From Macrostomum lignano (lineage: Eukaryota): a stretch of 41,469 bases of DNA. The notes under the pieces are model-generated. The model had not been told where the DNA came from. It made no database searches and saw only the letters and a program-made list of their open reading frames with translations. Of this stretch, positions 18,378-41,282 are shown in pieces. Within the stretch, counting starts at the first letter, position 1. Each line of letters opens with the position of its first letter. Position numbers and translations under genes: made by a program. The stretch is taken from contig NIVC01001572.1 in assembly GCA_002269645.1 (NCBI GenBank), positions 45,052 through 86,520 of the forward strand, written 5' to 3'.

Positions 18378-21299
18378 ATGCAATCGAAAAATCACCAAGC
18401 AGACGCAGCTAAGCTGACGGCACCGACCAAAGAGATGAGCGAGGAGGAAACTGGCAGCAATGGCGGCGGCGGCGGCAGCAGCAGCAGCAGCAGCAGCGGC
18501 AGCCGCAGCCGCAGCAGCGCCTTCAAGCACATGAAGCTGAAGCTGCACCTCGCAGCCACTGGAGAGGACATGGAGGAGGCAAAGCAGGAGCCCGACGCGA
18601 AAAGCGGAACGGACGACTCCGACAAGGTGCCCACCACCGGCGACGTCAGCGACAACTCCGACGACTCGGAGGTGAGCAACCCGAGCCAGCTGCTCAACCG
18701 GATTCTCAACGAGTTCGGCGTGTCATTCGTGCGCGACAACTCGAGCTGCAAGCTGGCCACCTGCGGCCTGAAGCTCTGCTCCCAGCAGCTGCTGCCGCCG
18801 ATGGACGACAGCGACGACCAGCCGTCGGAGGCGGCTTCGGAAGCGGCTGCAGCGTCAGCGGCTGCCGCGGCCTCAGCGGACGGCGGCAGCGACAACCCGG
18901 ACGGGTCGCTCTACTACACCAAGAAGTTTCATGAGAAATTCGCCAGCGTGAACCGCAAGCGCAAGCTGGAGGCACCGGGACTCCCGCTGAACAACTTCGT
19001 GCGCTTCTACAGCGGCGGGGAGCACGCCGGCGCCATGGAGGAGCTCGGCGACGCCCTGGTCGAGACAATGTCCAGCACCAGCACGCTCAACGATGACACC
19101 GCGAGTCTGAAGGATTCGACTGCGGGCTCCGAGGCGGATGCCTCTTCGATGCCGCTGGCTTCCTCTGCGGGGGCGAAGGCAGCGGCCGCAGCTGCCGCGG
19201 TCGCCTCGGGGGAGCCGTGCGCTGTGTGCGAGGACCGAGCCACCGGCCTGCACTACGGAGTCATGACCTGCGAGGGGTGAGCAGGGTTCGATCTTGAGTG
19301 ATGATGCGTGTTGAGGGTCCCAGAGAGCCGGGACTCCCCACCGCAGAGGGCTCTGTTCCGTAGCAGACAGGTCAGGCAGCTTTCTCAAAGCCGCAACCCC
19401 TCCCCGCAGCTGCAAGGGCTTCTTCAAGCGCACCGTGCAGAACCGCCGAATCTACGAGTGCGGCTTCGGTCAGGGCTGCGACGTGCAGCTGCAGCGCCGG
19501 AACAACTGCCAGTTCTGCCGCTTCAGGAAGTGCCTGGACACCGGCATGGTTGTGGAAGGTACGGAAGAGATAGCTGACGGTGAGACAGCTGACGGTGAGA
19601 TAGCTGACGGTGAGACAGCTGACGGTGAGATAGCTGACGGTGAGACAGCTGACGGTGAGATAGCTGACGGTGAGATAGCTGACGGTGAGACAGCTGACGG
19701 TGAGATAGCTGACGGTGAGACAGCTGACGGTGAGATAGCTGACGGTGAGATAGCTGACGGTGAGATAGCTGACGGTGAGATAGCTGACGGTGAGATAGCT
19801 GACGGTGAGACAGCTGACGGTGAGACAGCTGACGCCCATGAAGGCCAACCTGTAAGGCACAGAGACAGAGACTGTACATGCCTGACGAGGAGAAAGTCAG
19901 AGCTTTGTACACCCTGTGTGAGTTCGAGCCTGCTTGCTCAAGGGTCACCGCCACTCTGAATGGGCCTGACTGATCCTGCATTGATGCACCCGCCGCCTCT
20001 TTCAGCGGTCCGCGAGAACCACATGCCGGGCGGCAGAAACTCGAAGGCTGTCTACGGAAAACTATTTGTAAGTCCATTTGACTGACTCTGACTGGGGTTT
20101 GTCACAGCATGACTGACTCTGACTGGGGTTTGTCACAGCATGACTGACTCTGACTGGGATTTGTCACAGCGTGACTGACTCTGACTGGGATTTGTCACAG
20201 CGTGACTGACTCTGACTGGGATTTGTCACAGCGTGACTGACTCTGACTGGGATTTGTCACAGCGTGACTGACTCTGACTGGGATTTGTCACAGCGTGACT
20301 GACTCTGACTGGGGTTTGTCACAGCGTGACTGACTCTGACTGGGGTTTGTCACAGCATGACTGACTCTGACTGGGATTTGTCACAGCATGACTGACTATG
20401 ACTGGGGTTTGTCACAGCATGACTGACTCTGACTGGGGTTTGTCACAGCATGACTGACTCTGACTGGGGTTTGTCACAGCATGACTGACTCTGACTGGGA
20501 TTTGTCACAGCGTGACTGACTCTGACTGGGATTTGTCACAGCGTGACTGACTCTGACTGGGATTTGTCACAGCAATGACTGACTCAGCTTTGCCGCCTAC
20601 TGCAGACGTCAAGCGCAAAGCAGCCGCGCTCTGAGGCGGGTGGAGACTCGACCAGACAGCAGCAGGCCGGACCTTCGGCGGCAGCCGATGAAGCCGCCGC
20701 GACAACGCAGCAGCCGCAGAGCCAGAAGCCGCAGCAGCAGAAGCCGCCGTCCAGACCGACGGGTCACGCGTCGCGGGGCGGCAAGGCGGGCCGCCAGCAG
20801 CCGTCAGCGGCCGCTTCAAAGAAAGCGGCGGCTGCTGCGGCTGGCTTCTCGTACGGACCGCCGCCGCTGCCGCCGCCGCCGCCACAGCAGCCGCCGCAGC
20901 CGCCGTTCAGCGCTGGGTTGACTCGAGCGCCGCAACCACCGCTGCTGCCACCGCCGAGGGATGGCGCCTTCGGCATGATGGGGCATCTACAGCAGCCGCC
21001 GCGAATGCCGTCAGGCCTGGGCCTGCCCGACCCTGCGTTCTTGGCGGCCGCCACCGCCGGCCACCGCTACTTCCAGACACCGGCGCCCCCGCCGCTGATT
21101 GGCTACTCAGCCGCCTCTGCTTCCATGAGCCCCGGCCCGAGCGGCGCCAGGCTTCAACAGGCGTCGCTGCCGCCTCCGCTGCGCCGACCGCCGCTGCCGC
21201 CGCCACCAGGCGGTGCGGCCTATTATCCTCAAATGCCCGCAGCAGCCTCCGACACAGGCGGCATACCGTACTCCAACTTTGGGCAGCAGTACCAGCAGT

Positions 21300-21345
<46 letters not shown>

Positions 21346-23854
21346 TCAGTACCCGCCTCATCCAGTGCAGCAGCAGCAGCAGCAGCAGCAGGCGGATTCG
21401 TCAGATCCGTCTCAAGCGCTCCGCCTGCTGTCCAGCGGACTGGCGCACCCGCTGCCTGTCAGCCTGGACCTCGTGCGCGAAGCCATCGACAAGTCGGACG
21501 GCCTGGCCGGCTGCCTGACGGAGCTGGAGAAGGTATGCCTGATGTGCATCTTCCGCTGGAGCCGCGAGACCGAGGCTGCACCCGGGGTTGGCAGCGGTGC
21601 CGCCTTCGCCAACTGGAAGCACATCCTGCTGCTGTCCGTGACGCGCCACTTCCTGGTGAACTCGCAGACTCTGCGCCAGGCCGGCACCACCTCGATGAGC
21701 CACCTGGCCTTCGAGCTCGGCTGTCGGATGAAGCGGTACGCGGCCGAGCACCGCGTTGACCAGGCCGACCCCGATGGGAGAATGAGTGAGTCTGGAAGTT
21801 TGGAGGAGCGGCGCTGTCCTTGGGGGGGGGGCGCCAGTCAGGTGGGTCAATATTCAGGGAGGGCGAGGCGGATGCCAGTCAGAGGAATCATAGCCTTTAT
21901 TAAACATGCTCAGAAAGTTCTTAAAGAATCGATAAAACTAGAATTGACTAGAATTGCAACTAGAATTGCAGAGCCCAGCTTGCAAGCAGCTTCAACAACC
22001 CCATCATTCCAGACTCCCTGCTGGCCGAGATGGCCGAGTTCTGCTCCGTAATTCTGGACGTGGTTCTCAACTCCAGAAAGGACGTTATCAGCGACTTCAT
22101 CTTCCTGTTGAGCAGCCACTCGGAAGAGCGTGAGCAGAGCCAGTGCTAATTTTGCTTCTAAACTCTGCTTTCGAGCCCGAGAATTGTTTATCAGTTTTCC
22201 AGAGCACTGGGTGCGGTGGTCTGACTGAGTGAAGCTGAGAAACACTCCATCTGCAGAGAAGAATAGGCTGACCCGTGACAATGAGCCCCTGTGCTGACAG
22301 TAGAAGATCAGCTAGAGAGGGTAGGGGGGCTGCTGCAGCCCTCTCTTACTACGACAGAAGCGCAGACGCACAAGCAGTCTCAGACGCTGCCATTGTCCTT
22401 CGCTCTTTTAGCCTACCCTAATAAACAAGGCTCGTAAAGAGAAGTTTTCGCAGGCCTGGGGCAAGCATGGGGTCATTGCGCAGAGCAAACGCATGCGGGG
22501 CGCCGCCAGGCTCGGAGCCCTAATTTCCGAGCCAGCTGCAGATGGGGCGCCGTGAAACGTGCTGCCAGTCGGCTCACAGAGTCGCAGATTGCAGCGGGGC
22601 CACGTGCGAGAGCGAAAATGCTTGAGCTCTCAAGACAATGGGCGGCTGGGTTCGCAATTAGTGGAGCAGTGAGACACGCTGTACAATGGAGCCTCACTGG
22701 GTTGTTGGAGTCGCACGAGCGGCTGCTGGGCCATGGGCATCCCGAGCTAAACATCTGGTTCGGGGACACCCAGAGTAGTTCCTCCACAAGCCCGCAAGCC
22801 ACTGCTGCACGGGGGCACATTTTCGAGACCTTTAAGATGGGTAAATATTTACGAAAAACTATAGTGAGCCTGCTGCCGTTCCAGATTCTATTTTCAGAAC
22901 TCCCTGGCGCGGGACGGCGCAGACTGAGTGGCCTCAAACAGGCAGCATCTGTATTCAAGATGTCCCTGATTTGCAGATGGGAATCCAACTGGCACCCGGA
23001 TAAGGCCTTGTTTTAGACATCTAGACATTTATTAATAATAATAATAATTGATTACACCTGCCCAAATTGGGTCCGATGTGCAACCGACAGCTCAGCCGCA
23101 GCTATTGCGCGGTGCATCTGATGGCTGGGTACGGCTGTTCAGTCCAAGGACTGAAGGGTCACACACACCCTAAATTACAGCTGGGTGAACTGAAGCAATG
23201 CAGAGTTACAAGTGTCTTGCTTAAGGACTCAAATTGTTCCAGTGGGATCGGAAATCGAACCCCCGACCTTCAAGTCGAGAGTTCGACGCTCGCTAGCCAC
23301 TAGGCTACAACTGGGGGTTGCAGACTTCTAGACAAACAAGTACGAGTAGAGTGTGCTAATGATTATTTATGTACGCTCGTAGTCAGGTAAAAAGTCACGA
23401 CAGTCATGCCTGACGATTCGAAAGTCACCTGTACATCCTGTGTGAGCGAGTGCGAGTCTGCGTACAGTATAGATATTAGCGCATCCTAGTGGTCCTTGAG
23501 CGCTGGTTTTGTGCCAATAATGACTAATGCGACTGCAGAGAGCAATTCAGATGAGTCACACCGTCTCACTCCACCCTTCATTGCCTCCGCCAACTCACAG
23601 AAATTGTCTCCCGCCTGGAAAACCAGCCGCGCCTTCTGCCCGCGCTGCGGGCCTTCCGGGCGGCAGCGACCGCGCTGGAGACGGCGCGCCCTGATCAGCA
23701 GGCGCTGCTGATGGCGCTGCTGCTCGGCTCTGCTCCGGTGCCGGTCAGCTCCACTGCCGCGGCGTCGTCGGCCGAGAGGATTCCAACGGCTCTGACGACC
23801 GTCGCGACGTCCAGCAGCGCGTCTTCGGCCGCAGCGCCTGGCAGCGTTGCCTAG
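18378..23854 (+). CDS. Hr4: Nuclear receptor, NR6A (HR4/GCNF) type: join(18378-19276, 19410-19558, 20006-20067, 20606-21785, 22013-22129, 23601-23854)
   Basis: C4 DBD: [20 protein letters not shown]|[17 protein letters not shown]...[17 protein letters not shown]|[17 protein letters not shown], closely matching the HR4 DBD and T-box (…QAVREDRMPGGRNSGAVY). All five introns are GT-AG with matching phases (2,1,0,1,1). A divergent LBD ends in an AF-2-like LLMALL. Orthology is from memory of HR4, not from a search. Confidence 0.88.
19576..19834 (+). repeat. 15-bp tandem repeat GACGGTGAGA(T/C)AGCT x17 in nuclear receptor intron 2
   Basis: Units start at 19576 and recur every 15 nt to 19816. Confidence 0.97.
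20080..20585 (+). repeat. 31-bp tandem repeat GACTGACTCTGACTGGG(G/A)TTTGTCACAGC(A/G)T x~16 in nuclear receptor intron 3
   Basis: 31-bp period (20080, 20111, ...). Confidence 0.97.
23027..23314 (-). mobile_element. tRNA-derived SINE with a CORE-like central segment and a (TTA)n tail, antisense in nuclear receptor intron 5
   Basis: Minus strand has an A box TAGCCTAGTGG, a B box GGTTCGATTTCC and an acceptor-like stem CCAGTTG/CCACTGG. GTCCTTAAGCAAGACACTTGTAACTCTGCATTGCTTCAGTTCACCCAGCTGTAA resembles the MIR/CORE segment (CCTTGGGCAAGTCACTTAACCTCTCTG...CAGTTTCCTCATCTGTAAA). The tail is ATTATTATTATTAATAAA. Confidence 0.75.
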
Positions 23855-26742: not shown

Positions 26743-28245
26743 GCTGCGAGCCTGAAAGCTGCTTCGTCTTGTTCAAAGCAGCGGCAAGTCGGTGGCCGGT
26801 CTCGGCGAGGCCATGCAGGAGAATTGAAGGCGCGCTGTGGCCACCCGCGCTGAGCTCTCGGCGGTGAAAAAATGCGTGGGTCGGGGCGCAGCCGAGCTGC
26901 TCAAACTGATGCAGCAGCCAGCTGCCAGAGCTGCAGCAGCTGATCACCAAGGTGATCTTATAGTAGTCTATGGCCGAGAGCTCTTCTTTGGCAATCGAAT
27001 AAAAGTACTTCGTGAGGGTTAAATATAACCCCGTGACCCTAACCCTGCTGTGAGCTACTTGCTACTGACAAATACGCTCGTAAATCGTTCGTCTGGAAAG
27101 TGAGCTCTTGTCTCAGGTTCTCAAACTCGACTCTAAAATATGCAGGACCATGTGCGATCGTGCGTGGATGCTCGCGACGATATTTAATGTTGAGTCTGTT
27201 TTACGTGTACACTCGGCCTAATCACCCAACAGGACACAAATTTAAAAATGAGACGTTTGCTATTGCTGTACTCGTATGCTTTCTAAATGAGTCCATTGGG
27301 CACGAGTTTATTGGGCAAATTAAGCCGAGCTCCAGGTAAGCAAGGCAAGCTTGCCGTGATGGGGCAGTAGCTTGTCAATGCTCCACGCACTCACACACAC
27401 CATAGGCTGTTATCTCAGTTAGTATCGGTTAGTAAATGGTTCTACTGTTCAACCGAAAGTTTCGACCACAAGCTGTTAGGGCGCCAGTTTGCTCGATCGC
27501 AAGTTGGAAAATTGGAACAATAAAATCTGCCTCAGTCAGCGTTATTTCAAACCAATAGCAAGAGATGCAAAAGAGTTCGACGAGATCGGACCCGGCCGTT
27601 GTGCGTCATTCGGCGGCTCCACCAGTGCTGCAGCTGTACCGCTGTCGCAGATCTTGGGCGCTGATCTCAGCAGTTTTCGTGGGAGCCCGACGTTCTTAGT
27701 GCAAGCCAACTTCAGCAGGCTGAACTTTCTAATTTTCACCTGTGCATCCCGCTAGGCGGGGCGAGCACAATGAACTCCTGCTGAACTGGTCTTGCTGTCC
27801 TGGGCTGATCGGCTGATTGTTGATGTTCGCACTGCTGAGATAGTTGATGCTGCTGCTGGTGTGAGCCGAGCTACGCTGGGAGCCTTAGACAAAGGATAGC
27901 GTCCGCAACGTTGGGGCCTACTTCTTAACTTTGGTCCCCTCGCTCCAGGCTCACCATTGTGTCCTCTCGTACCGTCCAGCCCCGGACAGGTGACACGACA
28001 AGCCGCCAAATGAATGTGAAGGAGCGTAGAATGGAACGTGGCGCAAGAGACTGCTTCTGGTCGCACAGCTGCTGAGACCAAATGGAGGAGAGCTGACAGC
28101 CTTCACAACAACTCAAATGAAAGTTGAACTCCATGAATAAAGTCGGTGCGTATTGAATTTAGACAGGCATTGCGAAATAAATGGGCCGCGTGTATTTGGA
28201 GAGCAGAAAACTGCAGTCGCTCTGAAAACTGTAAAAACCACTCAG

Positions 28246-29302
28246 AGAAGCCGCAGACACGCTAAACCTCCGGCTCCATCAGAGTCAGGTAGGCATCCAC
28301 AATCAGAAGCCGCAGACACGCTAAACCTCCGGCTCCATCAGAGTCAGGTAGGCATCCACAATCAGAAGCCGCAGACACGCTAAACCTCCGGCTCCATCAG
28401 AGTCAGGTAGGCATCCACAATCAGAAGCCGCAGACACGCTAAACCTCCGGCTCCATCAGAGTCAGGTAGGCATCCACAATCAGAAGCCGCAGACACGCTA
28501 AACCTCCGGCTCCATCAGAGTCAGGTAGGCATCCACAATCAGAAGCCGCAGACACGCTAAACCTCCGGCTCCATCAGAGTCAGGTAGGCATCCACAATCA
28601 GAAGCCGCAGACACGCTAAACCTCCGGCTCCATCAGAGTCAGGTAGGCATCCACAATCAGAAGCCGCAGACACGCTAAACCTCCGGCTCCATCAGAGTCA
28701 GGTAGGCATCCACAATCAGAAGCCGCAGACACACTAAACCTCCGGCTCCATCAGAGTCAGGTAGGCATCCACAATCAGAAGCCGCAGACACGCTAAACCT
28801 CCGGCTCCATCAGAGTCAGGTAGGCATCCACAATCAGAAGCCGCAGACACACTAAACCTCCGGCTCCATCAGAGTCAGGTAGGCATCCACAATCAGAAGC
28901 CGCAGACACGCTAAACCTCCGGCTCCATCAGAGTCAGGTAGGCATCCACAATCAGAAGCCGCAGACACGCTAAACCTCCGGCTCCATCAGAGTCAGGTAG
29001 GCATCCACAATCAGAAGCCGCAGACACACTAAACCTCCGGCTCCATCAGAGTCAGGTAGGCATCCACAATCAGAAGCCGCAGACACGCTAAACCTCCGGC
29101 TCCATCAGAGTCAGGTAGGCATCCACAATCAGAAGCCGCAGACACACTAAACCTCCGGCTCCATCAGAGTCAGGTAGGCATCCACAATCAGAAGCCGCAG
29201 ACACGCTAAACCTCCGGCTCCATCAGAGTCAGGTAGGCATCCACAATCAGAAGCCGCAGACACGCTAAACCTCCGGCTCCATCAGAGTCAGGTAGGCATC
29301 CA
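28246..29302. repeat. 59-bp tandem repeat x~18, overlapping the stop codon and 3' UTR of the F-box gene
   Basis: Unit AGAAGCCGCAGACACGCTAAACCTCCGGCTCCATCAGAGTCAGGTAGGCATCCACAATC, period 59. Confidence 0.97.
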
Positions 29303-32151
29303 GAATCAGCTCTTTCGCATCGCTGCCCGAGGCCACGAGGACGGGCTGCTCGTAGGCAGACTGGAAAGCTGCAACTGCGGCCTCAGTCAGGTCGTCGCAG
29401 CCGGCAATGACCAGCTGCTGCAGCCACGGGCAGCCATTCCGGATACTGGCCAGGGCAGCGGGGGTCAGCTGGGTGCAGCCAGACAGCCACAGCCGCCGCA
29501 GGCCCCTGGCAACCGGACTGGCGCACAGGTCAGCAATTGCCTCATCGGTGAGGCTGGGCTCGGATTTGTAAGGCTCGCGGTCAGCCTCAGGGTAGAGCAG
29601 CACCCTGAGCTCGAGCAGGTCCGCTGAGCAGTTTTGAACGGTTCGCAGGTTCGCCCAGGCCCGGCCGGTGAGGCGCCGGCAGTCGAGGAGGCGGAGGCAG
29701 CGCAGGCGGGGCAGCTGGACGAGCAGAGCCGGTAGGCGGTCGTCGTGGCACACGTCCAGGGTGAGGTGGGTCAGGCCTGCGGAGGGCGGAGTGCCGCACG
29801 ACTCTCAAACTGCTGCATGAGTTTAAGGGTTTCTAAGGTTAAAGGTTAAAGGTTTCTAAGAAACCTCTTTTATCCGGCCCTCGCTCGGATCCATTGAAAC
29901 TTCACAATAGCAATCCGACCAGCTAAAGGTTGGTCATTGGTGTCAGTTCCCTCTTTTCTTTCTTGTCTTCTCTCTCCCTCTTTCTCTCTCCTCTCCTCTC
30001 CTCTCCTTTCCTCTCTCCCCTCTCCACCTCTTCCCTCCCTTATCCTCTCTTCGCTCTTCTCTCCCGTCTTCTCTCCTCTTATCTTACATTTTTTCTCATC
30101 CCATATTTCGCCTCTTCTCTTATCACTCATATTCTATTCCTTCTCCTTTACCTTAAGGATTGAAGAAATCATTGTGGGGGGGGGGCAGGATTCTCCGCAG
30201 CTCAAACAGTCCACACAATTGTTTCTAAGAAACCAAGTTTCCCGTCCTTCTGCACCAGTAGTCCTTGGCACAAACAGGCCAGACAGCCGCCGCTCACCCT
30301 GGCAGGCCCGCAGGCCCTCGGACTGCCCCAGGCCAGCGAAGTCCTCCAGCTCCAGCAGCGGGCAGATGCGCAGGCACAGCTGCCGGAGACCCGCCGGCAG
30401 CGGCGCGGCCAAGTCCGCATCGGCCAGGCGGCAGCGCGTGAACCGGACGATCCGCAGCTCCTCCAGACGGGCGGGCAGGCGGTCAACCAGCAGCCGGTAG
30501 GCCGCACCATCCAGGACGCGGCATTCGCCGATGCAGAGGCTGCGCAGCCGCGGGCAGGCAGCCGCCAGGCGGCCGAATCTGTCGGCAGTCAGCTGGGTGC
30601 AGAAGTCCAGCCGGAGGCCGCGAATGCCGCCGCCGTGGAGGGGGTGGATCAGCAGCTCCGCCATCGAGTTGTTGATATTTGAGTGGGGCAGAGCCAGCTC
30701 CGCCAGGCGGGACAGGCGGGACAGCAGCTGCCGGAATTCTGCGAATGCGACAGACAGACTGACTGGCTGACTGACTGACTGACCGTCTGGCTGACTGACT
30801 GACTGACTGGCTGACTGACTGACTGACTGACTGACTGACTGACTGTCTGACTGACTGACTGACTGACTGACTGGCTGACTGACTGGCTGACTGACTGACT
30901 GACTGACTGACTGACTGTCTGACTGACTGACTGACTGACTGACTGACTGACTGACTGACTGACTGACTGACTGACTGACTGACTGACTGACTGACTGACT
31001 GACTGACTGACTGACTGACTGACTGACTGACTGACTGACTGGCTGACTGACTGACTGACTGACTGACTGGCTGACTGACTGACTGACTGACTGACTGACT
31101 GACTGACTGACTGTCTGACTGACTGGCTGACTGACTGACTGACTGACTGGCTGACTGACTGACTGACTGACTGGCTGACTGACTGACTGACTGACTGGCT
31201 GGCTGACTGATTGACTGACTGACTGACTGACTGACTGACTGACTGACTGACTGGCTGACTGACTGACTGACTGACTGGCTGACTGACTGACTGACTGACT
31301 GACTGACTGACTGACTGACTGGCTGACTGACTGACTGACTGACTGACTGACTGGCTGGCTGACTGATTGACTGACTGACTGACTGACTGACTGACTGACT
31401 GACTGACTGACTGACTGACTGGCTGACTGACTGACTGACTGACTGGCTGACTGACTGACTGACTGACTGACTGGCTGACTGACGGTCGCTTACCAAGCAG
31501 GAAGATGGGGCTCAGAGTCACACTGCTTAGACTTGGGCACTCCGGCAGAACAGAGACAACCTGCCGCACCAGCCGATGGCTCACCTCCAGGTGCAGCGAA
31601 GTCAGCCGGCCGATGATGCCCGCCAGCAGCGACACGAGGTTCGCGTTCTCGGTTGAAAAGTTCGAATACTCGCGGAAGTCCAGCTCGGCCAGGCTCGGAC
31701 AGCCGGCCAGCAGCTGCTTGGCCGGGTCCTCGGTAAACAGCCAGCCGGAGTAGTGCAGCCGCAGACTGCGCAGGCGGGGGCAGCAGCGGCCCAGAACGGA
31801 CAGCGGGTTCGGCCCAGGCCGCCGGTCCCTGTCCGCGTGGTCCGCTTCGTTCTGCGGCTTCTCCAAGGTGAATTTCTGCAGGTTCTTCGACTTGCTCAGC
31901 AGTGGCGCCAGCTCCAGAGCGATCAGCCGGTCGGCGCGGAGCTCCAGCAGCGAGGCGGACAGCCAGGCGGTCAGGCGGGCGATCAGGTTTGGATTGACCG
32001 ACGGGTTGGCGCGGATTCGAATTCGGCGCCACAGCCACGGCTGGGCAACGATTTGCCGCCAGCGCCTGCTCAGCTGAGCGCACCGGCCGAGGCTGGTCTG
32101 GTCCAGCTCGGACAGGATCTGCGTGAGCAGCTCGACAGGCAGCTGCTCCAT
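29265..32151 (-). CDS. F-box/leucine-rich-repeat (FBXL-type) protein: complement(join(29265-29776, 30298-30738, 31494-32151))
   Basis: F-box MEQLPVELLTQILSELDQTSLGRCAQLSRRWRQIV, followed by AMN1-type LRRs (LRSLCIGECRVL, LRRLWLSGCTQLT, LQQLVIAGCDDLT). Both introns are phase 1 with GTAAGC or GTGAGC donors and CGCAG acceptors. Confidence 0.9.
29950..30160. repeat. CT-rich low-complexity tract in F-box gene intron 2
   Basis: Near-pure pyrimidine plus strand. Confidence 0.85.
30753..31483. repeat. (GACT)n / (CAGT)n microsatellite filling F-box gene intron 1
   Basis: Direct reading, with GGCT, GTCT and GATT variants. Confidence 0.98.
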
Positions 32152-32316
32152 CTGCTCCGATGCTTGACAGAAAACCCGGCCAATTAGCTGCTTAAACATG
32201 TCTGCATGCACTTTGGTGCTTGTCTATGGTACCCAAGAAATCTAATTTTTTACTTCCGATTTACTCGGCCGCGTGGCAACATTGAGTGACTAAGTTCTCA
32301 GTCTTGCTTTGAAATA

Positions 32317-32777
32317 TTCAGTGACATTTGCTTCTGCTTCAGTGACATTTGCTTATCATTCAGTGACATTTGCTTCTGCTTCAGTGACATTTTCAACTGC
32401 TGGCATCAATGAGCAGATACAACAATTTCAACTGCTCATATCAATGAGCAGATACAACAGTTTCAACTGCTCACATCAATGAGCAGATACAACAGTTTCA
32501 ACTGCTCATATCAATGAGCAGATACAACAGTTTCAACTGCTCACATCAATGAGTAGATACAACAGTTTCAACTGCTCACATCAATGAGCAGATACAACAG
32601 TTTCAACTGCTCATATCAATGAGCAGATACAACACTTTCAACTGCTCACATCAATGAGTAGATACAACAGTTTCAACTGCTCACATCAATGAGCAGATAC
32701 AACAGTTTCAACTGCTCACATCAATGAGCAGATACAACAGTTTCAACTGCTCACATCAATGAGCAGATACAACAATT
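32317..32777. repeat. Two adjacent arrays: 21-bp x~3.6 (32317-32392) and 35-bp x~11 (32393-32777, TCAACTGCTCACATCAATGAGCAGATACAACAGTT)
   Basis: Period 35 (32463, 32498, ...). Confidence 0.93.
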
Positions 32778-33357
32778 TTAAGCAAATTGAACAAAAGCTA
32801 TAAAAATGCAATAAAATGTCTCGGATACAAAGCAAACTGCAGGCAGGAACCACAACTCATGTCCTGATCTGGATAGAGAAAAGCAGCTCAACCCTATAAT
32901 AATAAGATTTTGATTACAACTGAATCAGTAGATAACATGCCTACTTTTCAGTCCTACCTCTAGTTAGGCATAGCATGAGCCAATAAAAAGTATTCTCATT
33001 ATTGTTAAATGTAAGTTTCGTTTTTAGCAACAAAAGCTTTTTATGTGCAGCGCCAGCCATTTTAGGAATTAAGAATTGTTATGTCTTCTTTTACACCGAA
33101 GAAAGACGGAAGATAGTGCTTGAGCGTTTGCGAGCTTATGCCACTCGAGAGCATAGCCGTTTCAGAAACTTAATATATTTCTTTGGGTCGCGAGCCGTCT
33201 CAAGCATTTAATACTGTACCGAGTATCTAGAGTTTCAACCCTAGACACTTTAGAAGCAGAAAGCAAACGAAGCCGAAGTCTATAAGAAGTCAGAAGTCAC
33301 GTCACAACATCTGTGACAACATCTGTCACAACATCTATTTAGATACTTTCAATATAG

Positions 33358-34058
33358 TGTTGGGCTGCGCCCTTCCAGTGTGTATGTACTCGTACTTTTG
33401 TTTTCAGTTTTCATGCCACCCCGCCCCGTCCCCCGTCTCGCGCCCGGGCCAGGGTTTGTGAGAGGCGTAAGTCTCAACCCTGGCCTAGCCCTTTGCACCC
33501 AGCCCCCGGCCCAATCTCTGTCCAATCTGGGTGCCCCCCCCCTCCCTCGTTGCCCGCCTCACCCTGGGGCTGCTCGTATTGGCTGGCTGGCTGATAAGCC
33601 GGCTGGGCCCCAGGGTTTGGCTCGCCGTCTCCATTCTGCCCCACCCCTCCCCCTTTTTTGTGTATTATTTAAATGCTAGCCCTGAGCGGGCTGCGCTCCA
33701 CGTTTGCTCTCTATTGGTGTCCGCTTCGTTCTTACTGTTTTTGCGTTCATCGGCGTACCTCTGCCTTCGCGTGCCAATAACTGCTTCGGGCCAACAAACG
33801 CTTCGTGATTAACTCGATATATCAAGAGGAGGTGAGCTCGAGCTTTCGTTCTTCTGGGTTGCCGCGTGGGGCCGGGATCTGCAGGGACCTGGGAACGGTG
33901 AACTCTCGCCGATCCCAGGGTGTTCGGTCAGGCGAACTCTCGCCGAACCGAGCGAGACAGGGTAGGAATAGCCGGGGTGAGGGCTGGGACAGGGGTGTCT
34001 CAGGCGGGGAGGGCCCGAACCTTGACCCGTCCAGCGGCCATTAGGCCGAGACACAACA
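33358..34058 (+). repeat. 5' LTR, 701 bp (TGTTGGG...ACAACA)
   Basis: TG...CA ends. The first ~187 bp match 41283-41469. Followed by the PBS after 2 nt. TATA-like TATTTAAA near 33666. Confidence 0.95.
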
Positions 34059-34060
34059 AG

Positions 34061-34078
34061 TGGTGCCGTGACCAGGAT
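34061..34078 (+). other. Primer-binding site TGGTGCCGTGACCAGGAT, probably tRNA-His
   Basis: The reverse complement ...GTCACGGCACCA matches the 3' end of eukaryotic tRNA-His plus CCA. Confidence 0.8.
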
Positions 34079-34182
34079 CAGCGGTCCTCTCCCCTGCTGT
34101 CCTGCCGTGTGTTTAGGGTTGTGTGTGTTGCCTAGTTTATTTGTGTGTTGTTTGCTTCGGTTGTCTCTGTGTTTTTGTAGCC

Positions 34183-35162
34183 ATGGCCAATTTAGACGAT
34201 CTGATTGACGCCCTGACGGCGCGTCTGCAAAACGAACTTAATGTGGCACAGCGGGTGCCGAGGCCAAATAAGTACGTGCCCACACAGGACTTTGCCCTTT
34301 GGATGCAACAATTCACAGGGTATTGTGAGGCGGCTCATATTCTAGGGGATCAGCGCAAGCAGGCGCTGCTCAGTCTGCTTGACTTTAATACTGCTTTTAA
34401 GGCTGTTGCGAATCTTGAGTTGGCCGATGATTTGCCGTATGATGAGTTTGTTGAGCAGCTAGAAGCTAGGTTTGATGAGAATAGGACTGCTCAAGATTAC
34501 AAGACCGAGTTCCAGAGTAGGAATCAGAAAGATGGCGAGCCCATTGAAGAATATGCAGACGTGCTCAAGGAGCTTATGAGAAAATCGTACCCAATGCTGC
34601 CAGCGGCCCAGCGAGAAGAGTTGGTGAAAGACAGGTTTTTGAAGGGGATTCGGGTGCCAGCCCGGGTGCTGGAGAGCGTGCTGCTGCAAGCGCCAGAGAC
34701 GCTCCAGGACGCTATTAGGCGGGTGCGTCAAGTGAGGGCATCGTTGGCTCTGATGGAGCCTGAGGGTAAGCGAGCTGTGCACATGGTGGGGGTCAGGCCG
34801 CAGCGGCTGGCAACAGCCAGGAGTCCAGGGCAGCCGCCGAGATAGCAGCTCTGAAAGCGGAAGTGGCTCAGCTAAAAGCAAGTGCTGCAGCGCCCACTGC
34901 GCCGATGGCGACAGCAAGGTCTGAGCAGCCAAAAGTGAGCTTGCAGCATCGAGCCCCTGAGCAGAGTCAGCAGCAGAGGCAGTGTGGTCGGTGCCTGCAG
35001 ACAGGGCATACTACGGCTCGGTGCCGTAATGCAGTGGTCTGCCGGGAGTGTGGCCAGTCAGGGCACATGCGCAACCGCTGCGATCGTCGGTGGGACCAGT
35101 CGGGTTCGGGAAACGGATTGGGGGCTCGGCCGGGGCACCCGTCCGGGCCCCAGCGTCAGTGA
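34183..35162 (+). CDS. gag: Gag with two CCHC zinc knuckles; 1-nt frameshift in the G5 run at 34788-34792
   Basis: MANLDDLIDAL...capsid-like region (RNQKDGEPIEEYADVLKELMRKSYP...LVKDRFLKGI). Adding one G joins it to GQAAAAGNSQ...AEIAALKAEVAQLK and CGRCLQTGHTTARC / CRECGQSGHMRNRC. Confidence 0.9.
35108..35160 (+). promoter_or_regulatory. Programmed -1 ribosomal frameshift signal: G GGA AAC heptamer plus downstream GC-rich stem
   Basis: The heptamer is in X XXY YYZ register in the gag frame, and the -1 frame is the pol ORF (GKRIGGSAG...). TGGGGGCTCGG can pair with CCGGGCCCCA about 4-5 nt downstream. Confidence 0.8.
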
Positions 35163-38100
35163 ATCCGGGTGCATCGGGGGCCGCGGCCTTGTCCCAGAGT
35201 GTGCTGAGTCGGCAGGGACTGGGCTATGTGGATGCACAGTTTAGGTTTGGGCCCCCGATTGCATGTCTGCTTGACAGCGGGGCCACCGTGTCGTTGTTAA
35301 GCAACCGTTTCCTGAAGTCTAAAAAAGCCGACATTGACTTATTGCCGAATTTGCCGAATTTTTCCGTTTTCGCTGCCAATGGGGAACCGATTGCTGTACA
35401 TGGAATGGTGACGATGAAGTTTTCTGTTGGGGACACCGAGTTTTTGCACGAGTTCGCTGTGGTCGAGGAACTGGCTGTGGCATGTATTCTGGGCACTGAC
35501 TTTTTCGTGAGACACGGGATGGCGATTGACTTTGCTAGGAATTGCTTGCAGACTGCATCCTGTGTGTATCCGTTTCGCTTATCAGCAGATAAGCCGCGTC
35601 TTTGCCGTCTGGTGCTGAGTCAGCCTGAGCAGTTCAATGCAGGTCAAGAGAAGGTGGTGCACGTCAGGTTGCAGAGAAGGGTTCCCTCTGGGGTTCAGTT
35701 CCTAGGCATTGTGGAGTCTGAGAGGAGAGTGAGTAACGAGCAGATGGTGGCCAGATCGGTACAGATGCCTGACGGGGACGGTCGCTTGGCTGTCAGGGTG
35801 TTGAACACGTCAGGATGCAGTCTGTCATTAAGGAAGGGAAGCCGAATTGGTTGGTTCTCCCCAGTGGCGGCCCAGCAGCCAGCTGGGTGGCAGGTGAACT
35901 CGGTGGAGAGTGTCCGAGACGACTGGAACCCCCTCAGCGATGTCAAGGAGTGGGGAGGATGTGGCCTGACGGGCGATGAGAAGCACGAGTTTGAGCGCCT
36001 GATGGCTCGGAATCGTGATGTCTTTGCCAGGGATAGCTCGGAGTTGGGACAGTCACACTTGATGGCGCATGAGATTGACACCGGCAACGCCAAGCCAGTA
36101 AGTCAGCCGCGCGTAGGATTCCACCGCGCTGGAAGGAGGAAATTGATAAGCAGGTTGATGAGTTGTTGCAGCAGGATCGCATCTATCCCTGCTACTCTCC
36201 GTGGGCGAGCCCGATCGTGCCGGTTAAAAAGGCCGACGGTAGCTTGAGGTTGTGTCTAGACTATCGGCGCCTTAACGAGGTCACAGTGCCAGATCCTTAC
36301 CCACCGCCGCGGATGGACGAGACGCTTGATGCGCTAGGAGGGAACTGTGTTTTCTCGACGATGGATCTGGCCTCCGGCTATCATCAGTGCCCGATTGAGC
36401 CGAAGGACCAGTTGAAAACGGCGTTCGTGGTACCCAACAGGGGTCAGTTCGCCTGGAAGTGCATGAGTTTTGGCTTGCGCAATGCTCCCGCTACGTTCGC
36501 CAGGCTAATGTCTATGGCCCTGTCTGAGGTTAACTGGAAGGAGTGCCTGGTGTACTTTGACGATATAGTCGTGTTCGCCAAGTCGGTGGGTCAGCATCTC
36601 GAGCGATTGAAGCATGTTTTCCAGTGCCTGAGGGATGCCAATGTCAAGCTGAAGCCCGCCAAGTGTGTGTTCCTCGCAGAGCGGGTGAAGTTTCTGGGCC
36701 ACATCGTCTCTCAGGAGGGGATCGCAACGGATCCGAGCAAGTGCGAGGAGATCCAGAATTGGCCGAGGCCATGTAGCGCCAAGAAGGTGCAGGCATTCCT
36801 GGGTACGTGCGCCTACTATCAGTCATTTATCCCGCAGTTTTCAGAGATTGCAGCGCCGCTGTATAGGTTAACCGCAGACGGAGTGAAGTTTGAGTGGGGT
36901 AGTGAAGAGGAGAGCTCGTTTTGCAGGCTGAAAGACGCTTTGTGTTCACCGAATGTGATGGCATTCCCGGATTTTTCGCCTGGTGCCGGGGAGTTCATCC
37001 TCGACACGGACGCCAGTTCGCGCGTCGGGCTGGGAGCCGTCCTGTCACAGCGTCAAGCAGATGGCCGTGAGAAGGTGATCGCTTACGGGTCTAGGATGAT
37101 TCATGCGGCGGAGAAAAATTATTGCACCACCAGGTTAGAGTTGCTTGCCGTCGTGCACTTCGTCAAAAAGTATAGGTACTATTTGTTAGGTAGAAAGTTC
37201 ACTGTTCGTTCAGACCACAAAGCTTTGCAGTGGCTAGCCAGTCTGAAGGACGTAGAGGGTCAGTGCGCAAGGTGGCTTGAGTCGCTCCAGAACTTCGACT
37301 TTGAGATCATTCACAGGCCAGGCAAGGAGCACGGCAACGCTGATTCGCTGTCTCGCAAGTACCGAAAACACGCTGGCCATGAGAGCTGCCCTAGCTGCCA
37401 GTTTAGCGAGAATGTGCCAGTAGTGAACGCGGTGTTTGGCAGTGGGCTGTCTTCGAAGGAAGTCCAGCAGGCGCAAGTGGCCGAGAAGAAGCTTGCAGCT
37501 GTCCGCTCCTATGCCCTGGACCCGGGTTCGAACCCCAGTGCGCCTAGAGTGATGTCGTGGGAGGAGCGTGTGCTGTGGGCACAACGGCAGCTGATAAGAG
37601 TAGAGTCTGATCTGTTGTATTTTCAGAGTCCCGGGAGTGGGTGCCAGAAAAAGATCTTGCTGCCGCCGGCTTTGCTGCCGAAAGTGCTCAGTGAGCTTCA
37701 TGATGGGGTTGCAGGAGGGCACCTTGGGGTTAGGAAGACACAAGAGAAAGTGAAGGCGAGATACTGGTGGCCGGGGCTGAGTCGTTCCGTGGAAGAGTAT
37801 TGCCGGAGCTGTGTCCACTGTGCGAAGGCGAAGCCTGGGCGCAGCAACCGGGCGCCTTTGCAGCCAATCTGCTCGGAAGGAGCTTTCCAGAGGATCATGA
37901 GTGACATTGTCGGGCCGTTGCCCAAGTCCAGAGGTGGCAATCGATTCGTGCTGACAATCCAGGATTCTTTTACTAAGTGGCCGGTGGCGGTGCCCTTGTC
38001 CAATCAGCGAGCCCCGACGGTGGCGCGAGCGATTTTTGATCACTGGATTGCGCACTTTGGTTGTCCTGAATTTCTAGTCACCGATAAGGGCACCAATTTT

Positions 38101-39045
38101 GAGTCGGCTTTGATGAAGCAGTTGTGTCGGTTGCTTGCCGTTAAGAAATGCAGAACGTCCTCCTATCACCCGATGGCTGATGGTCAGGCTGAGAGTTTCA
38201 ATAAGACGTTGAAGTCAATGATCAAGTGCAGGATGAGTGAGTCGGTGGGCGAAGGAGACTGGGAGGATCTGATCCACCCGTCTCTCATGGCGTACCGTAG
38301 CAGCGTTCACAGAGGCACGGGGTACACCCCGTACTACATGCTGTACGCCAGGGAGATGCGGCTTCCAGTGGACATCGGAACCTTGCCTGAGTCCATTCCT
38401 GCCAGTGCTCCGGCGTATGTTCAGTCATTAGGTAATAGTCTGGCTGAGGCTCATTCGCAGGTGCGGACCAACCTGCAGCAGTACCAGAGGAAACAGAAAG
38501 TGCTGTACGACTCAAGGGTGCGAGGCCCGGCCATAGAAGTGGGGGATGCCGTCCTAGAATACTCGCCTGCGCTGCAGGCAGGGGAGGCAGCCAAGTTCCA
38601 TTGCAATTGGAAGGGGCCGGCGAAGGTGTTAGAGAAGATATCCGATTTGAATTACCGGGTAAAGCACGCCAATAGGGGAAAGAGAAAAATAGTGCATTAT
38701 AATAATTTGCGAAAAGTACCCGAGCGGCCTGAGCAGTTCAGGTTGATGAATAGGCATACGGCAGTGCAGCGCCGGTCGGCGCATCCGCCTGAGCCGGCAG
38801 GGTGCAGACAGGAGCCCGCGGGGCCGGCGACTAAAGAGCCGGAACTTGAGGAGGAGGAGGAGTTTTACTCGTATGTGGTGCCACCAGTTGCCGTTGGGCC
38901 TCGGCATGGGATAGTAGGGCCGGGAACGCCAGTTGCGCCATGCGCACCGGTGGCTCCAGCGGCGCCAGCCGTGTCTCCGCGCAGACTGCGCGAGCGTCGG
39001 GGTGTGCCCCCAGCGTATTACGGGAATCCGGTATTGTATCGTTAA
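35108..39045 (+). CDS. pol: Pol: aspartic protease, dUTPase-like spacer, RT, RNase H, integrase; 1-nt frameshift at ~36107-36112
   Basis: PR: LLDSGAT. RT: SPWASPIVPV...YFDDI. RH: LDTDAS...ELLAV...SDHKAL...ADSLS. IN: HDGVAGGH...CRSCVHC, SDIVGP, TDKG...35 aa...E, and a C-terminal WKGPAKV. The frames join as PVSQP-x-RRIPPRWKEEIDKQVDELLQQDRI. Confidence 0.95.
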
Positions 39046-39382
39046 TTCGCAGTGGGCTCACAAGGCGGTCGTCATAAATTGATTTTTAATATGCACTTGT
39101 ATTAATGCCTCCACGCTGTTGTCTATGGTAGAAAGCCTAAAATAACCTAAAATGAAAAAAATGATACAACCCCAAAGCACAAAAAAATCATAAAATGGAA
39201 CGCATGGAAAGCACGTAAAAAACATTAAATGTATTAAAATTACAAAGTATGCTAGGCAAGAAGCGTTCTCAATCGTATTGTAAAATAAACATGTCATAGG
39301 ATGGGTCAGGTCAGGGTCACAGTTGCTAGTCCGCAAGGCATAGGTAGTGATTGGGTTTAAATGTCATCATTGCAGGAGGACC

Positions 39383-40108
39383 ATGTCGTCGCCAACGACA
39401 CCGACTGATTTGTATGGCGTGTTAGGCGTGGGTCGGACTGCTAACTCTGCGGAGATTGAGGCAGCGTGTAGTCGTCTGTACTCAAAGCGGCCCCGCGTCT
39501 GTCCTGCCGAGGTAGAGTCTCCGGAGTCTCAGCGAGACGTGATGGCGATGTGCGTTTTATCTGACCCAGTGTTTCGGGAAGTATACGATCGGGTTGGGGA
39601 GGCAGCGTGTCAAGGGGTGTTAAAGTACGCCTACTTTTTCAATCCTCCCCCTGACGTTGAGTTGCCCGAGCAGGTCAGGTTAGCTTTGGCTAGTCTTAAG
39701 GGAAGCGCCGCAGGGGAAGCTCCAGTTCACGCGGAGATCCCAGCCGAGTTATTGGCTCCGGCTGCGCTTGCTGAGTGTAGGCGGCTGAGGGGTGCGCTGC
39801 TGGCGCGGTTGAGGGCTGGGGATAGTGAAGGAGCTTGCCTGGTGGTTCAGGAGGTGGCGAGGTTTCTTGATGGGGCTGGTGTGAGTGTGCCTGAGCAGTT
39901 GTCTAGATTCTTAGCAGTGTCTGTGTCGTTTCTGTGCAATCAGTATGGGCGGAAGAGAGGTTCTGGTGGTGGCTCCGGGAGGTGTCGGAGGGTCCCGCCT
40001 TCGGTGCTGCAGGCGGCGTTTGAGTGCGTGTTGTTGGCTGTGCGGGGTTTTGAGCTGTGTGAGTTGGGGGTCCCTTGTTGGGGAGGCTCCGGGGTCTGTC
40101 TCTCTTAG
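39383..40108 (+). CDS. Retrotransposon cargo ORF with an N-terminal J-domain-like region lacking HPD (probably exon 1, ending at donor 40058/40059)
   Basis: TDLYGVLGVGRTANSAEIEAACSRLYSKRPR...VLSDPVFREVYDRVGE aligns with the DnaJ consensus DYYEILGV...A...EIKKAYRKLA.KYHPD...VLSDPEKR..YD.YGE. Confidence 0.75.
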   Translation: MSSPTTPTDLYGVLGVGRTANSAEIEAACSRLYSKRPRVCPAEVESPESQRDVMAMCVLSDPVFREVYDRVGEAACQGVLKYAYFFNPPPDVELPEQVRLALASLKGSAAGEAPVHAEIPAELLAPAALAECRRLRGALLARLRAGDSEGACLVVQEVARFLDGAGVSVPEQLSRFLAVSVSFLCNQYGRKRGSGGGSGRCRRVPPSVLQAAFECVLLAVRGFELCELGVPCWGGSGVCLS

Positions 40109-40168
40109 TGGATCCTGGCCTCGCGCGGCGCCCGGAGGAGAGGGAGTGACGGGCCGCACCTTTCGCAG

Positions 40169-41068
40169 ACTCCGCTGACGGCCCAGCGCGACTTGGCGAC
40201 CGAAGAGTTAACGGGTGTCGACCCGAGCAAGTACGACCGGCCGACACGGTCCAGGAGGTCTCCCCCCGTGACGACCCGAATCAGCGCAAGGTCAGCTCGG
40301 CTAAGCGTCTCGTCGATGCAAAGGCATACCTAACGAGGCTGGGCCGGTCGATTCAGCCCGAGGACCTTCGTGGCGTGCGTCGATGTCTAGCGGCTGTAAA
40401 CTCGCCGTACTGCCTGCGTCTAGAATGTCCCGTGGTCCGACCACTGCTGCAAGACCGACGGATCGTGTTCGCCCTGGCCTGAAGGCCAGTGCTGCACCGT
40501 GGTGGCCATCGCTGCGAGACGATGTACGACGATTTCTAGCGGGTAGCTGGCCGCGTGTCGTGGCGGTCGGCGAAGTCGAGCTCAATTGGGACGCTGAGAG
40601 GTCGCAGCGCCAGGACCAGTTAACGGCGGCGATGGAGCAGTTCTTGCTTGCCAAGGAGTTCGGCCTGCCGGTTTTGTTCCGAGTTGAAGGCGGCGAACCT
40701 GCCTGGGCGGTCGCCCTAGATTCCTCCGGCAGCCGGAGTTTCAACGATGAGCGTCATGCTGGCCGAGGACCTGGACTTGCCGGAGCCGTCGAGGCCGCGC
40801 TGGTGAGCAGTGCCACGGGTCTTCTTCGAGGTGTCCGCTCGTGCCGAGGATCCCGCGAGCGGTCCAACGGGCTAAGCGTCTCCCGCGGCAGCGCCTGCTA
40901 GTGACATCGGCCGCACCGTTTGGTGGAGACCCCAAGGACCCGACAGCCATCAAGTTCGTGCCGGAAGCCCTAGCGGACAGTGAATGTGATCGCAGGTACT
41001 GGACTCGACTGTTTGCGACCAACTGTAGTAGATTTTTTGGCGATTGTAGAGTAGAATTGCGTTCTTAA
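40169..41068 (+). CDS. Retrotransposon cargo, TatD-like (metallo-hydrolase TIM barrel) domain with degenerate active site; interrupted by about 4-5 frameshifts in this sequence
   Basis: Collinear TatD-like motifs across frames: RLVDAKAYLTRL (40306), DRRIVFAL(G)LKA (~40455-40490), PRVVAVGEVELNW (40551), QFLLAKEFGLPVLFRV (~40640-40685), PRVFFEVS (~40812), KRLPRQRLLVTSAAPF (~40875-40920), FATNCSRFFG (~41012). Confidence 0.65.
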
Positions 41069-41271
41069 GCCCGTTTTCAATTTTTGCGTACGCAATAGTT
41101 TGTGTCCCGTTTTCATTTTTTCGTTTTGTTTTTTGTAATGCCGGCGATATCCACGCGTCGCGTCAAAGTTTTTCTGTTATTTTTCGGCCGTCTTTTTGAA
41201 TTAACTTTTTTTCAGACTTGCTTGTTCATGCGTTGCTTTTGCTTGACATCCCTTTCTCCTCTTCTTTTCGT

Positions 41272-41282
41272 GGAGGGGGAGA
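41272..41282 (+). other. Polypurine tract GGAGGGGGAGA
   Basis: Immediately precedes the TG start of the 3' LTR. Confidence 0.9.

Follow-up and report, generated by a model that had tools for sequence, protein, structure and literature searches.

Extra ORFs in LTR retrotransposons are already known. Those of bdelloid rotifers (ORF3s) encode host-derived enzyme folds, a DEDDy exonuclease or a GDSL esterase, in the env position after pol; they are family-specific, are described as made from spliced messages, have kept their catalytic residues, consist of a single domain, and evolve near neutrality (PMC5408684). In Drosophila errantiviruses, the third ORF, env, is expressed from a subgenomic RNA, and its start is made by the splice in some clades (PMC2585583; bioRxiv 2023.08.03.551782). 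Nucleases of the HxH class of TatD/TATDN proteins (YcfH, YjjV, and TATDN3) are TIM barrels with a GE motif (PMC10085689), and class C J proteins, among them DNAJC9 and the J-like Tim16/Pam16-type adapter, are described as fusions of a J domain to a part that directs Hsp70 to chromatin or regulatory complexes, or as HPD-less adapters (PMC10939069).

The flatworm ORF3 analyzed here likewise follows pol, where env would lie, and carries an enzyme fold of host origin; in contrast to the rotifer genes, it combines a core of J and helical domains with swappable add-ons, its TatD domain is degenerate, and it is under purifying selection. A splice-made start is predicted for its sister families, as in some errantivirus clades; unlike env, it is devoid of a signal peptide, a transmembrane segment, and similarity to fusion proteins. 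The TIM barrel and the GE motif are common to ORF3 and the HxH-class nucleases, whereas in the window's family (F1), six of the seven site positions are replaced, the domain is fused to J and helical parts, and it resides in a retroelement. With class C J proteins, there is no homology beyond the J domain, and ORF3 is encoded by an LTR retrotransposon. The polyomavirus T-antigen is a further protein in which a J domain is fused to a targeting part; a T-antigen-like LxCxE motif was absent from the 8 ORF3 rows scanned. ICP22 of HSV-1 is listed as another J-like protein.

Our searches did not find a selected J-domain co-chaperone as ORF3, the helical domain, or swapped add-ons described elsewhere: no account of an ORF3 of this type emerged from titles and the beginnings of abstracts in the open literature, the available text of the rotifer paper (PMC5408684) contains no mention of DnaJ or a J domain, and that of a survey of Macrostomum LTR elements (PMC12801592) mentions neither DnaJ, TatD, nor splicing. 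The survey text reports heat-induced LTR families bearing heat-shock elements (HSEs); a canonical three-unit HSE was present in 0 of the 10 family LTRs scanned here, which lends no support to a heat-shock link.

The window, that is, the whole stretch of DNA analyzed (41,469 nt), ends with the last base of its contig; database gene models containing this ORF carry the label Macrostomum lignano. The element at this end (Table 1) is a member of Ty3/gypsy, as it possesses LTRs, a primer-binding site (presumably tRNA-His-like), a polypurine tract, gag, and the order protease, RT, RNase H, integrase; its RT is closest to that of Ty3 among PDB structures. It is inserted near a 35-bp tandem array (32500–32849), and its LTR contains two imperfect 34-nt direct repeats (33882–33949) downstream of the predicted donor. 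Elsewhere in the window, fragments of F-box/leucine-rich-repeat-like host genes, split by long CAGT-type microsatellites, lie on the minus strand (27700–32223), and 18378–22051 on the plus strand holds what we take to be a nuclear-receptor-like host gene, with a zinc-finger start and a later ligand-binding-like exon.

Table 1. Features of the ORF3-bearing element in window coordinates (a slash marks a splice junction).
Feature	Coordinates	Strand	Basis
5′ LTR, TG...CA, about 700 bp	33358..34058	+	Direct repeat with 41283 onward; ends read
TATA-like box in LTR, putative promoter	33666..33674	+	Motif scan
Predicted splice donor 33831/33832, subgenomic ORF3 RNA	33824..33839	+	Consensus GAG/GTGAGC; used by P0004
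Primer-binding site	34061..34078	+	Sequence; TGGTGCCGTGACC-type site also in L060, L063, L126
gag	34183..34845	+	Pfam Retrotrans_gag; differs from public contigs by indel near 34787
Protease, RT, RNase H, integrase	35030..39045	+	Pfam, Ty3/gypsy order; indel near 36106 in window copy
Predicted splice acceptor 39375/39376	39365..39376	+	TTGCAG/, 7 nt before ORF3 ATG; acceptor-like sites in sisters
ORF3	39383..41049	+	One frame (558 aa) in other copies; broken in window
J-like domain, residues 9–69, HPD replaced by RPR	39407..39589	+	Pfam DnaJ; alignment with HPD-bearing sisters
Helical domain with basic loop, residues about 121–250	39743..40131	+	Shared by all ORF3 families
Proposed intron, coding sequence	40059..40168	+	Copy comparison, conservation
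TatD-fold domain, residues about 306–556	40297..41046	+	Pfam, fold model
Polypurine tract	41270..41282	+	Sequence
3′ LTR, cut off by contig end	41283..41469	+	Direct repeat with 33358 onward

The proposed intron and the reading frame of ORF3

A preliminary description of this DNA proposed that a 110-nt GT-AG intron could fuse the dead J-domain and dead TatD parts into one protein. The signals that it named are present: a donor-like CTGT/GTGAGT at 40058/40059 and an acceptor-like CCTTTCGCAG/AC at 40168/40169, separated by 110 nt, so that 40059–40168 has GT and AG ends in the consensus context of a spliceosomal intron. The part before the donor comprises 676 nt (phase 1), and removal of the stretch skips the stop at 40106–40108 and, in the window copy, does lead in frame into the ORF containing LVDAKAYL, but only via private indels. 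The apparent rejoining is due to an indel near 40221, the stop to indels near 40065 and 40141, and each of the three was found in 0 of 18 other copies. Splicing would still leave the window copy with a stop at 40482 and nine further indels downstream.

The other copies stem from a DNA search with 22 matches, of which 19 were near full length, including that of the window. In 10 of the remaining 18, a single open frame of 569–573 codons from stop to stop spans 39383–41049 (one of these open copies carries frame-neutral and terminal indels), and ORF3 counted from its ATG has 558 aa in both open copies listed; the other eight contain 1–4 indel columns, located elsewhere. Excision of 40059–40168 shifts the frame in both open copies examined, where a stop follows after 33 and 18 codons. 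The GT and AG ends are retained in 17 of the 18 copies, which would suit an intron, but the AG is missing from one copy whose frame is open. Alignment of copies had been suggested as a check, and in it, the stretch behaves as coding sequence that keeps its frame, not as a freely diverging intron: it corresponds to codons about 226–263, its first part is conserved in families that are about 30% identical, one glycine within it is conserved in 8 of 8 rows of the helical alignment, and its interior is thus under constraint at the protein level. The donor motif GTRAGT itself occurs 27 times in the window where 33.1 ± 5.2 are expected, which is no more than chance. Contigs from four of four public runs (three guessed to be RNA, one unknown) traverse 40059–40168 unspliced, and the 3 joints in contigs of the four runs include neither 40058–40169 nor 33831–39376, although contigs cannot show absence in either case. 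Two public gene models, P0001 and P0002, do use the acceptor at 40168, with a different donor; both are chimeric models that join unrelated genes. Their donor is a second GTGAGT (39881–39886), which they join in frame to the acceptor, thereby omitting most of the helical domain.

Thus, 40059–40168 is ordinary coding sequence, an intron as a requirement for ORF3 is refuted, and splicing of 110 nt to fuse the two domains has next to no probability. The suggestion that the genomic RNA is packaged unspliced falls with the intron and is unsupported, and the alternative named in the same description, frameshift errors linking both ORFs, is the right one. The fused J-like/helical/TatD-like protein that it anticipated is real, but as a single unspliced frame of 558 aa and not as a spliced product of 520–530 aa.

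In the window copy of ORF3, 12 single-base indels are spread from about 40065 to about 41040, most of them within or beside homopolymer runs; 11 of the 12 indel columns were found in 0 of the 18 other copies and the remaining one in 1. Relative to four copies, gap density is 0–1 over 37850–40000 and rises to 4, 7, and 6–8 in the three bins nearest the end of the contig. Contigs of all four public runs disagree with the window at each of 10 ORF3 indel places (12 of 32 rows listed). These patterns suggest that the indels are likely assembly errors; alternatively, they may be mutations private to this insertion. The intron is an artefact, and its only import is a caution about contig ends.

The ORF3 protein and its families

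In F1, residues 9–69 match Pfam DnaJ with E=0.0025 and residues 359–535 match TatD with E=4.9e-5, both below the cut-off, and the HPD motif reads RPR. The C-terminal 257 residues were modeled with a pLDDT of 88.8, and 13 of the top 14 Foldseek rows were TatD/deoxyribonuclease; the alignment used for the model had 14 rows, including 6 ordinary TatDs, and the model leans toward that fold. Fold and homology identify this part as a TatD TIM barrel, with HxH-class TatD/TATDN proteins as its best profile and fold matches and bacterial HxH-class proteins as its best PDB matches. When the site residues were scored against the definitions in PMC10085689, six of seven positions were replaced and only the bridging Glu (E398) was kept: the HxH or (G/A)xN motif of TatD nucleases has become K-A-Y (K314 and Y316), a Lys occupies the position of the substrate His, and R434, A462, and A513 replace two further His and the ETD Asp, three site histidines having become Lys or Arg. 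The part is basic (pI 9.7). Glutamates 398, 463, and 485 are invariant in 8 element rows, and the invariance of Glu463 and Glu485 may reflect a rewired site, so that the TatD domain need not be “dead”. The term double pseudo-enzyme, which had been applied to this protein, fits F1, where HPD and most TatD ligands are lost, but not the lineage at large, as HPD is retained by the majority of its sister families.

Neither a signal peptide nor a transmembrane anchor was found in ORF3 by hydropathy (highest 19-residue value 1.49) or by Pfam. The helical domain had neither a Pfam nor a usable Atlas match, and the best E values among PDB sequences were 0.11 and 0.017; a single-sequence fold of the whole protein was unusable (pLDDT 39). 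dN/dS of ORF3 was 0.27–0.32 in three of three subfamily pairs (p<=2.4e-5), a weaker constraint than that on pol (0.11), and 0.13–0.35 over shallow and deep comparisons, by which measure ORF3 is under purifying selection.

A protein search recovered distant ORF3 copies at 32–45% identity. Among 16 such places fetched, pol lies directly upstream in 10 (L055–L064), remnants of pol persist at L066–L068, and three truncated pieces (L053, L054, and L065) end in an LTR. These copies, many of them broken, fall into families F2–F5, whose ORF3 comprises a J part, a helical part, and a TatD-like part. L053, L054, L059, and L060 have HPD, L056/L057 have RPD, and the first His of HxH is retained; in 6 of 7 pieces scanned, J and TatD parts exceed the Pfam cut-offs (45–65 bits for the J domains of sister families). 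In several TatD-bearing sister copies, ORF3 is broken or partly deleted despite flanking LTRs that are 96–99.9% identical, and on this ground, it may be dispensable in cis. L062–L064 are young (LTRs 99.6–99.9% identical), one with an open pro-pol frame of 1307 codons, and what remains of their ORF3 lacks the J and helical parts as well as the beginning of the TatD fold. An array of 34-bp period borders L062 on either side. The ORF3 of L056 is about 94–95% identical to those of L062–L064 and L053/L054, while the LTRs lack blastn similarity, an apparent LTR swap.

A search with the F3 J domain revealed further multi-copy frames. Of 20 additional places fetched, 12 are situated downstream of pol in a gypsy element; the other 8 are DnaJ genes of the host, of the ordinary kind. 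Five families lack TatD; their open ORF3s (283–328 aa) consist of a J domain with HPD (5/5), an acidic linker, and the helical domain. In one of them, a multi-copy gypsy family (L127:1499–2482, minus strand; L128:7358–8341, plus strand), a chromodomain (E=1.5e-12) lies between linker and helical domain; chromoviruses, in contrast, carry the chromodomain on integrase. The other four (L121–L126, L129, and L140) have LTRs that are 98–99.9% identical, and several had 15–25 matching copies in the search. The helical profile of the TatD-less families scores 49 bits with F3, 41 bits with F2, and only 9 (8.9) bits with F1, and the reverse profile recovers two of the five at 29–32 bits; by these scores, the helical domains are homologous, F1 being linked to the TatD-less families through F2 and F3. 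As judged from the alignments, the shared core is a J domain (usually with HPD), an acidic linker, and the helical domain, to which one subclade adds the TatD-like domain and one family the chromodomain. The RT domains of about ten ORF3 families (family counts are lower bounds) are 48–71% identical to that of the window. In the RT tree, TatD-bearing families form one branch (89/91, not starred; midpoint root, no outgroup or one-clade test), and the tree is compatible with, though no proof of, a scenario in which TatD was gained once at a later stage and HPD was lost later in F1. We are almost certain of the following taken jointly: the open frame in other copies, purifying selection, the domain identities, the loss of HPD and TatD ligands, and the J plus helical core in about ten families.

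Outside the species, the full-length word search found no relative among 8000 scored sequences. A library of 1.84 billion yielded 14 matches: 3 gene models of the species itself, 10 generic TatD or DnaJ proteins, and P0003, a 166-aa fragment from a public contig of 1.2 kb that is 51% identical to the TatD-like domain and has no close match in the genome searched; it probably derives from a related element of another strain or species. From outside the species, this fragment was the one specific relative recovered. A TatD profile retrieved 9 ordinary TatDs, and a helical-domain profile 2 matches, both from M. lignano. The host has TATDN1-like and TATDN3-like genes (L078–L088), with intact active-site motifs and introns. 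Several database entries of M. lignano named “J domain-containing protein” are transposon fragments.

Predicted expression of ORF3

The ORF3 start lies 337 nt beyond the pol stop. The consensus donor of the LTR is situated 166 nt downstream of the TATA-like box, and the interval from the box region to the donor is free of ATG. The splice sites in gene model P0004 coincide to the base with 33831 and 39375, although the model may be purely ab initio. In six families, the distances from a YAG to the ATG of ORF3 are 0, 0, 0, 1, 7, and 16 nt; within 0–1 nt of the ATG, a YAG was found in 4 of the 6 (related, not independent) families, compared with 6% of spacer positions. In F2/F3, TTGCAG/TG precedes the J domain; it was found at 7 of 18 loci scanned and is missing from loci whose J part has been deleted, has decayed, or belongs to the F1 type. 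In each of four sister LTRs, GTAAG occurs once and follows an A, even though the F2 LTR has no blastn similarity to the others. Joining an A/GTAAG donor to a TTGCAG/TG acceptor would create a start codon in F2 and F3, much as the start codon of gypsy env is described to be made by a splice (PMC2585583; bioRxiv 2023.08.03.551782). In F2, a further ATG lies in frame about 20 codons upstream, and this family could thus do without the splice. No genomic processed copy joining LTR and ORF3 was found among 150 of 168 matches listed. From the arrangement of these sites, a splice from donor 33831 to acceptor 39375, giving an env-like subgenomic ORF3 RNA, appears probable. Spliced-leader trans-splicing occurs in flatworms and is an alternative use of the acceptor before ORF3.

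Candidate functions of ORF3

As an explanation of the whole, we lean toward an intron-free third gene whose indels in the window are likely errors, which would be expressed from an env-style spliced RNA and would encode a nuclear factor directed against host silencing. A nuclear, chromatin-directed factor is favored by the acidic tracts, the basic loop, and the chromodomain add-on. The mechanism, drawn from domain content and analogy, is more tentative: ORF3 would be an Hsp70-targeting J factor that loosens host repression, and in F1, which has lost both catalytic motifs, the protein would work through binding alone. Where HPD is kept, the J domain would recruit Hsp70 to whatever target the helical domain and the add-on select, the latter acting as a targeting module (chromodomain to methylated histone, TatD fold to nucleic acid), and the recruited Hsp70 would loosen a repressive host complex. 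Bound to nucleic acid or to the host chaperone/PIWI pathway, the F1 protein might serve as a scaffold or a decoy. Precedents for such steps are DNAJC9, a J protein for histones, and HPD-less J-like domains that act as adapters (PMC10939069), and planarian DNAJA1, which binds and stabilizes a PIWI protein (PMC11663942).

The same domains could serve the particle instead, with the J domain recruiting Hsp70 to Gag during assembly or uncoating, while the TatD fold would bind or shield cDNA or an RNA:DNA intermediate. Recruitment of Hsp70 by J domains (PMC10939069) and the action of TatD on ssDNA and RNA (PMC10085689), together with the basic pI and the exchange of site histidines for Lys or Arg, would agree with this, but the chromodomain, the acidic tracts, and the basic loop point to chromatin and the nucleus, and we regard such a chaperone of particle or replication as rather unlikely. 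That the TatD-like domain is a rewired, active nuclease trimming ends of element RNA or cDNA seems improbable. Although the invariant Glu463 and Glu485 and the retained bridging Glu, the sole ligand whose loss cut both TATDN1 activities (PMC10085689), speak for it, and the rotifer ORF3 exonucleases set a precedent (PMC5408684), F1 has other residues in place of HxH, the substrate His, the two additional histidines, and the Asp of ETD, and this Asp matters 30-fold in the HxH class (PMC10085689). Loss of HPD and of TatD ligands and the broken or deleted ORF3s of several sister copies would also be expected of captured host cargo that drifts without benefit to the element; dN/dS values of 0.13–0.35 in shallow and deep comparisons and a frame maintained in about ten families with RTs 48–71% identical to that of the window make this very unlikely, and an intron-bearing host donor with J plus helical or J plus TatD domains was looked for and not found.

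Returning to the anti-silencing factor, it is possible, if doubtful in this full form, that throughout a clade of Ty3/gypsy elements in flatworms, env has given way to a modular spliced J gene that would hijack Hsp70 against silencing complexes by means of exchangeable targeting modules (a chromodomain or a nucleic-acid-binding TatD fold), the F1 version being a double pseudo-enzyme decoy. If true, this would parallel, in retrotransposons, what viruses achieve with the T-antigen, and ORF3 would be an anti-silencing protein of an animal LTR element. Natural variants of ORF3 (with and without HPD; with a TatD-like domain, a chromodomain, or no add-on) occur in a model worm that is ready for transgenesis, which would make retrotransposon counter-silencing directly testable.
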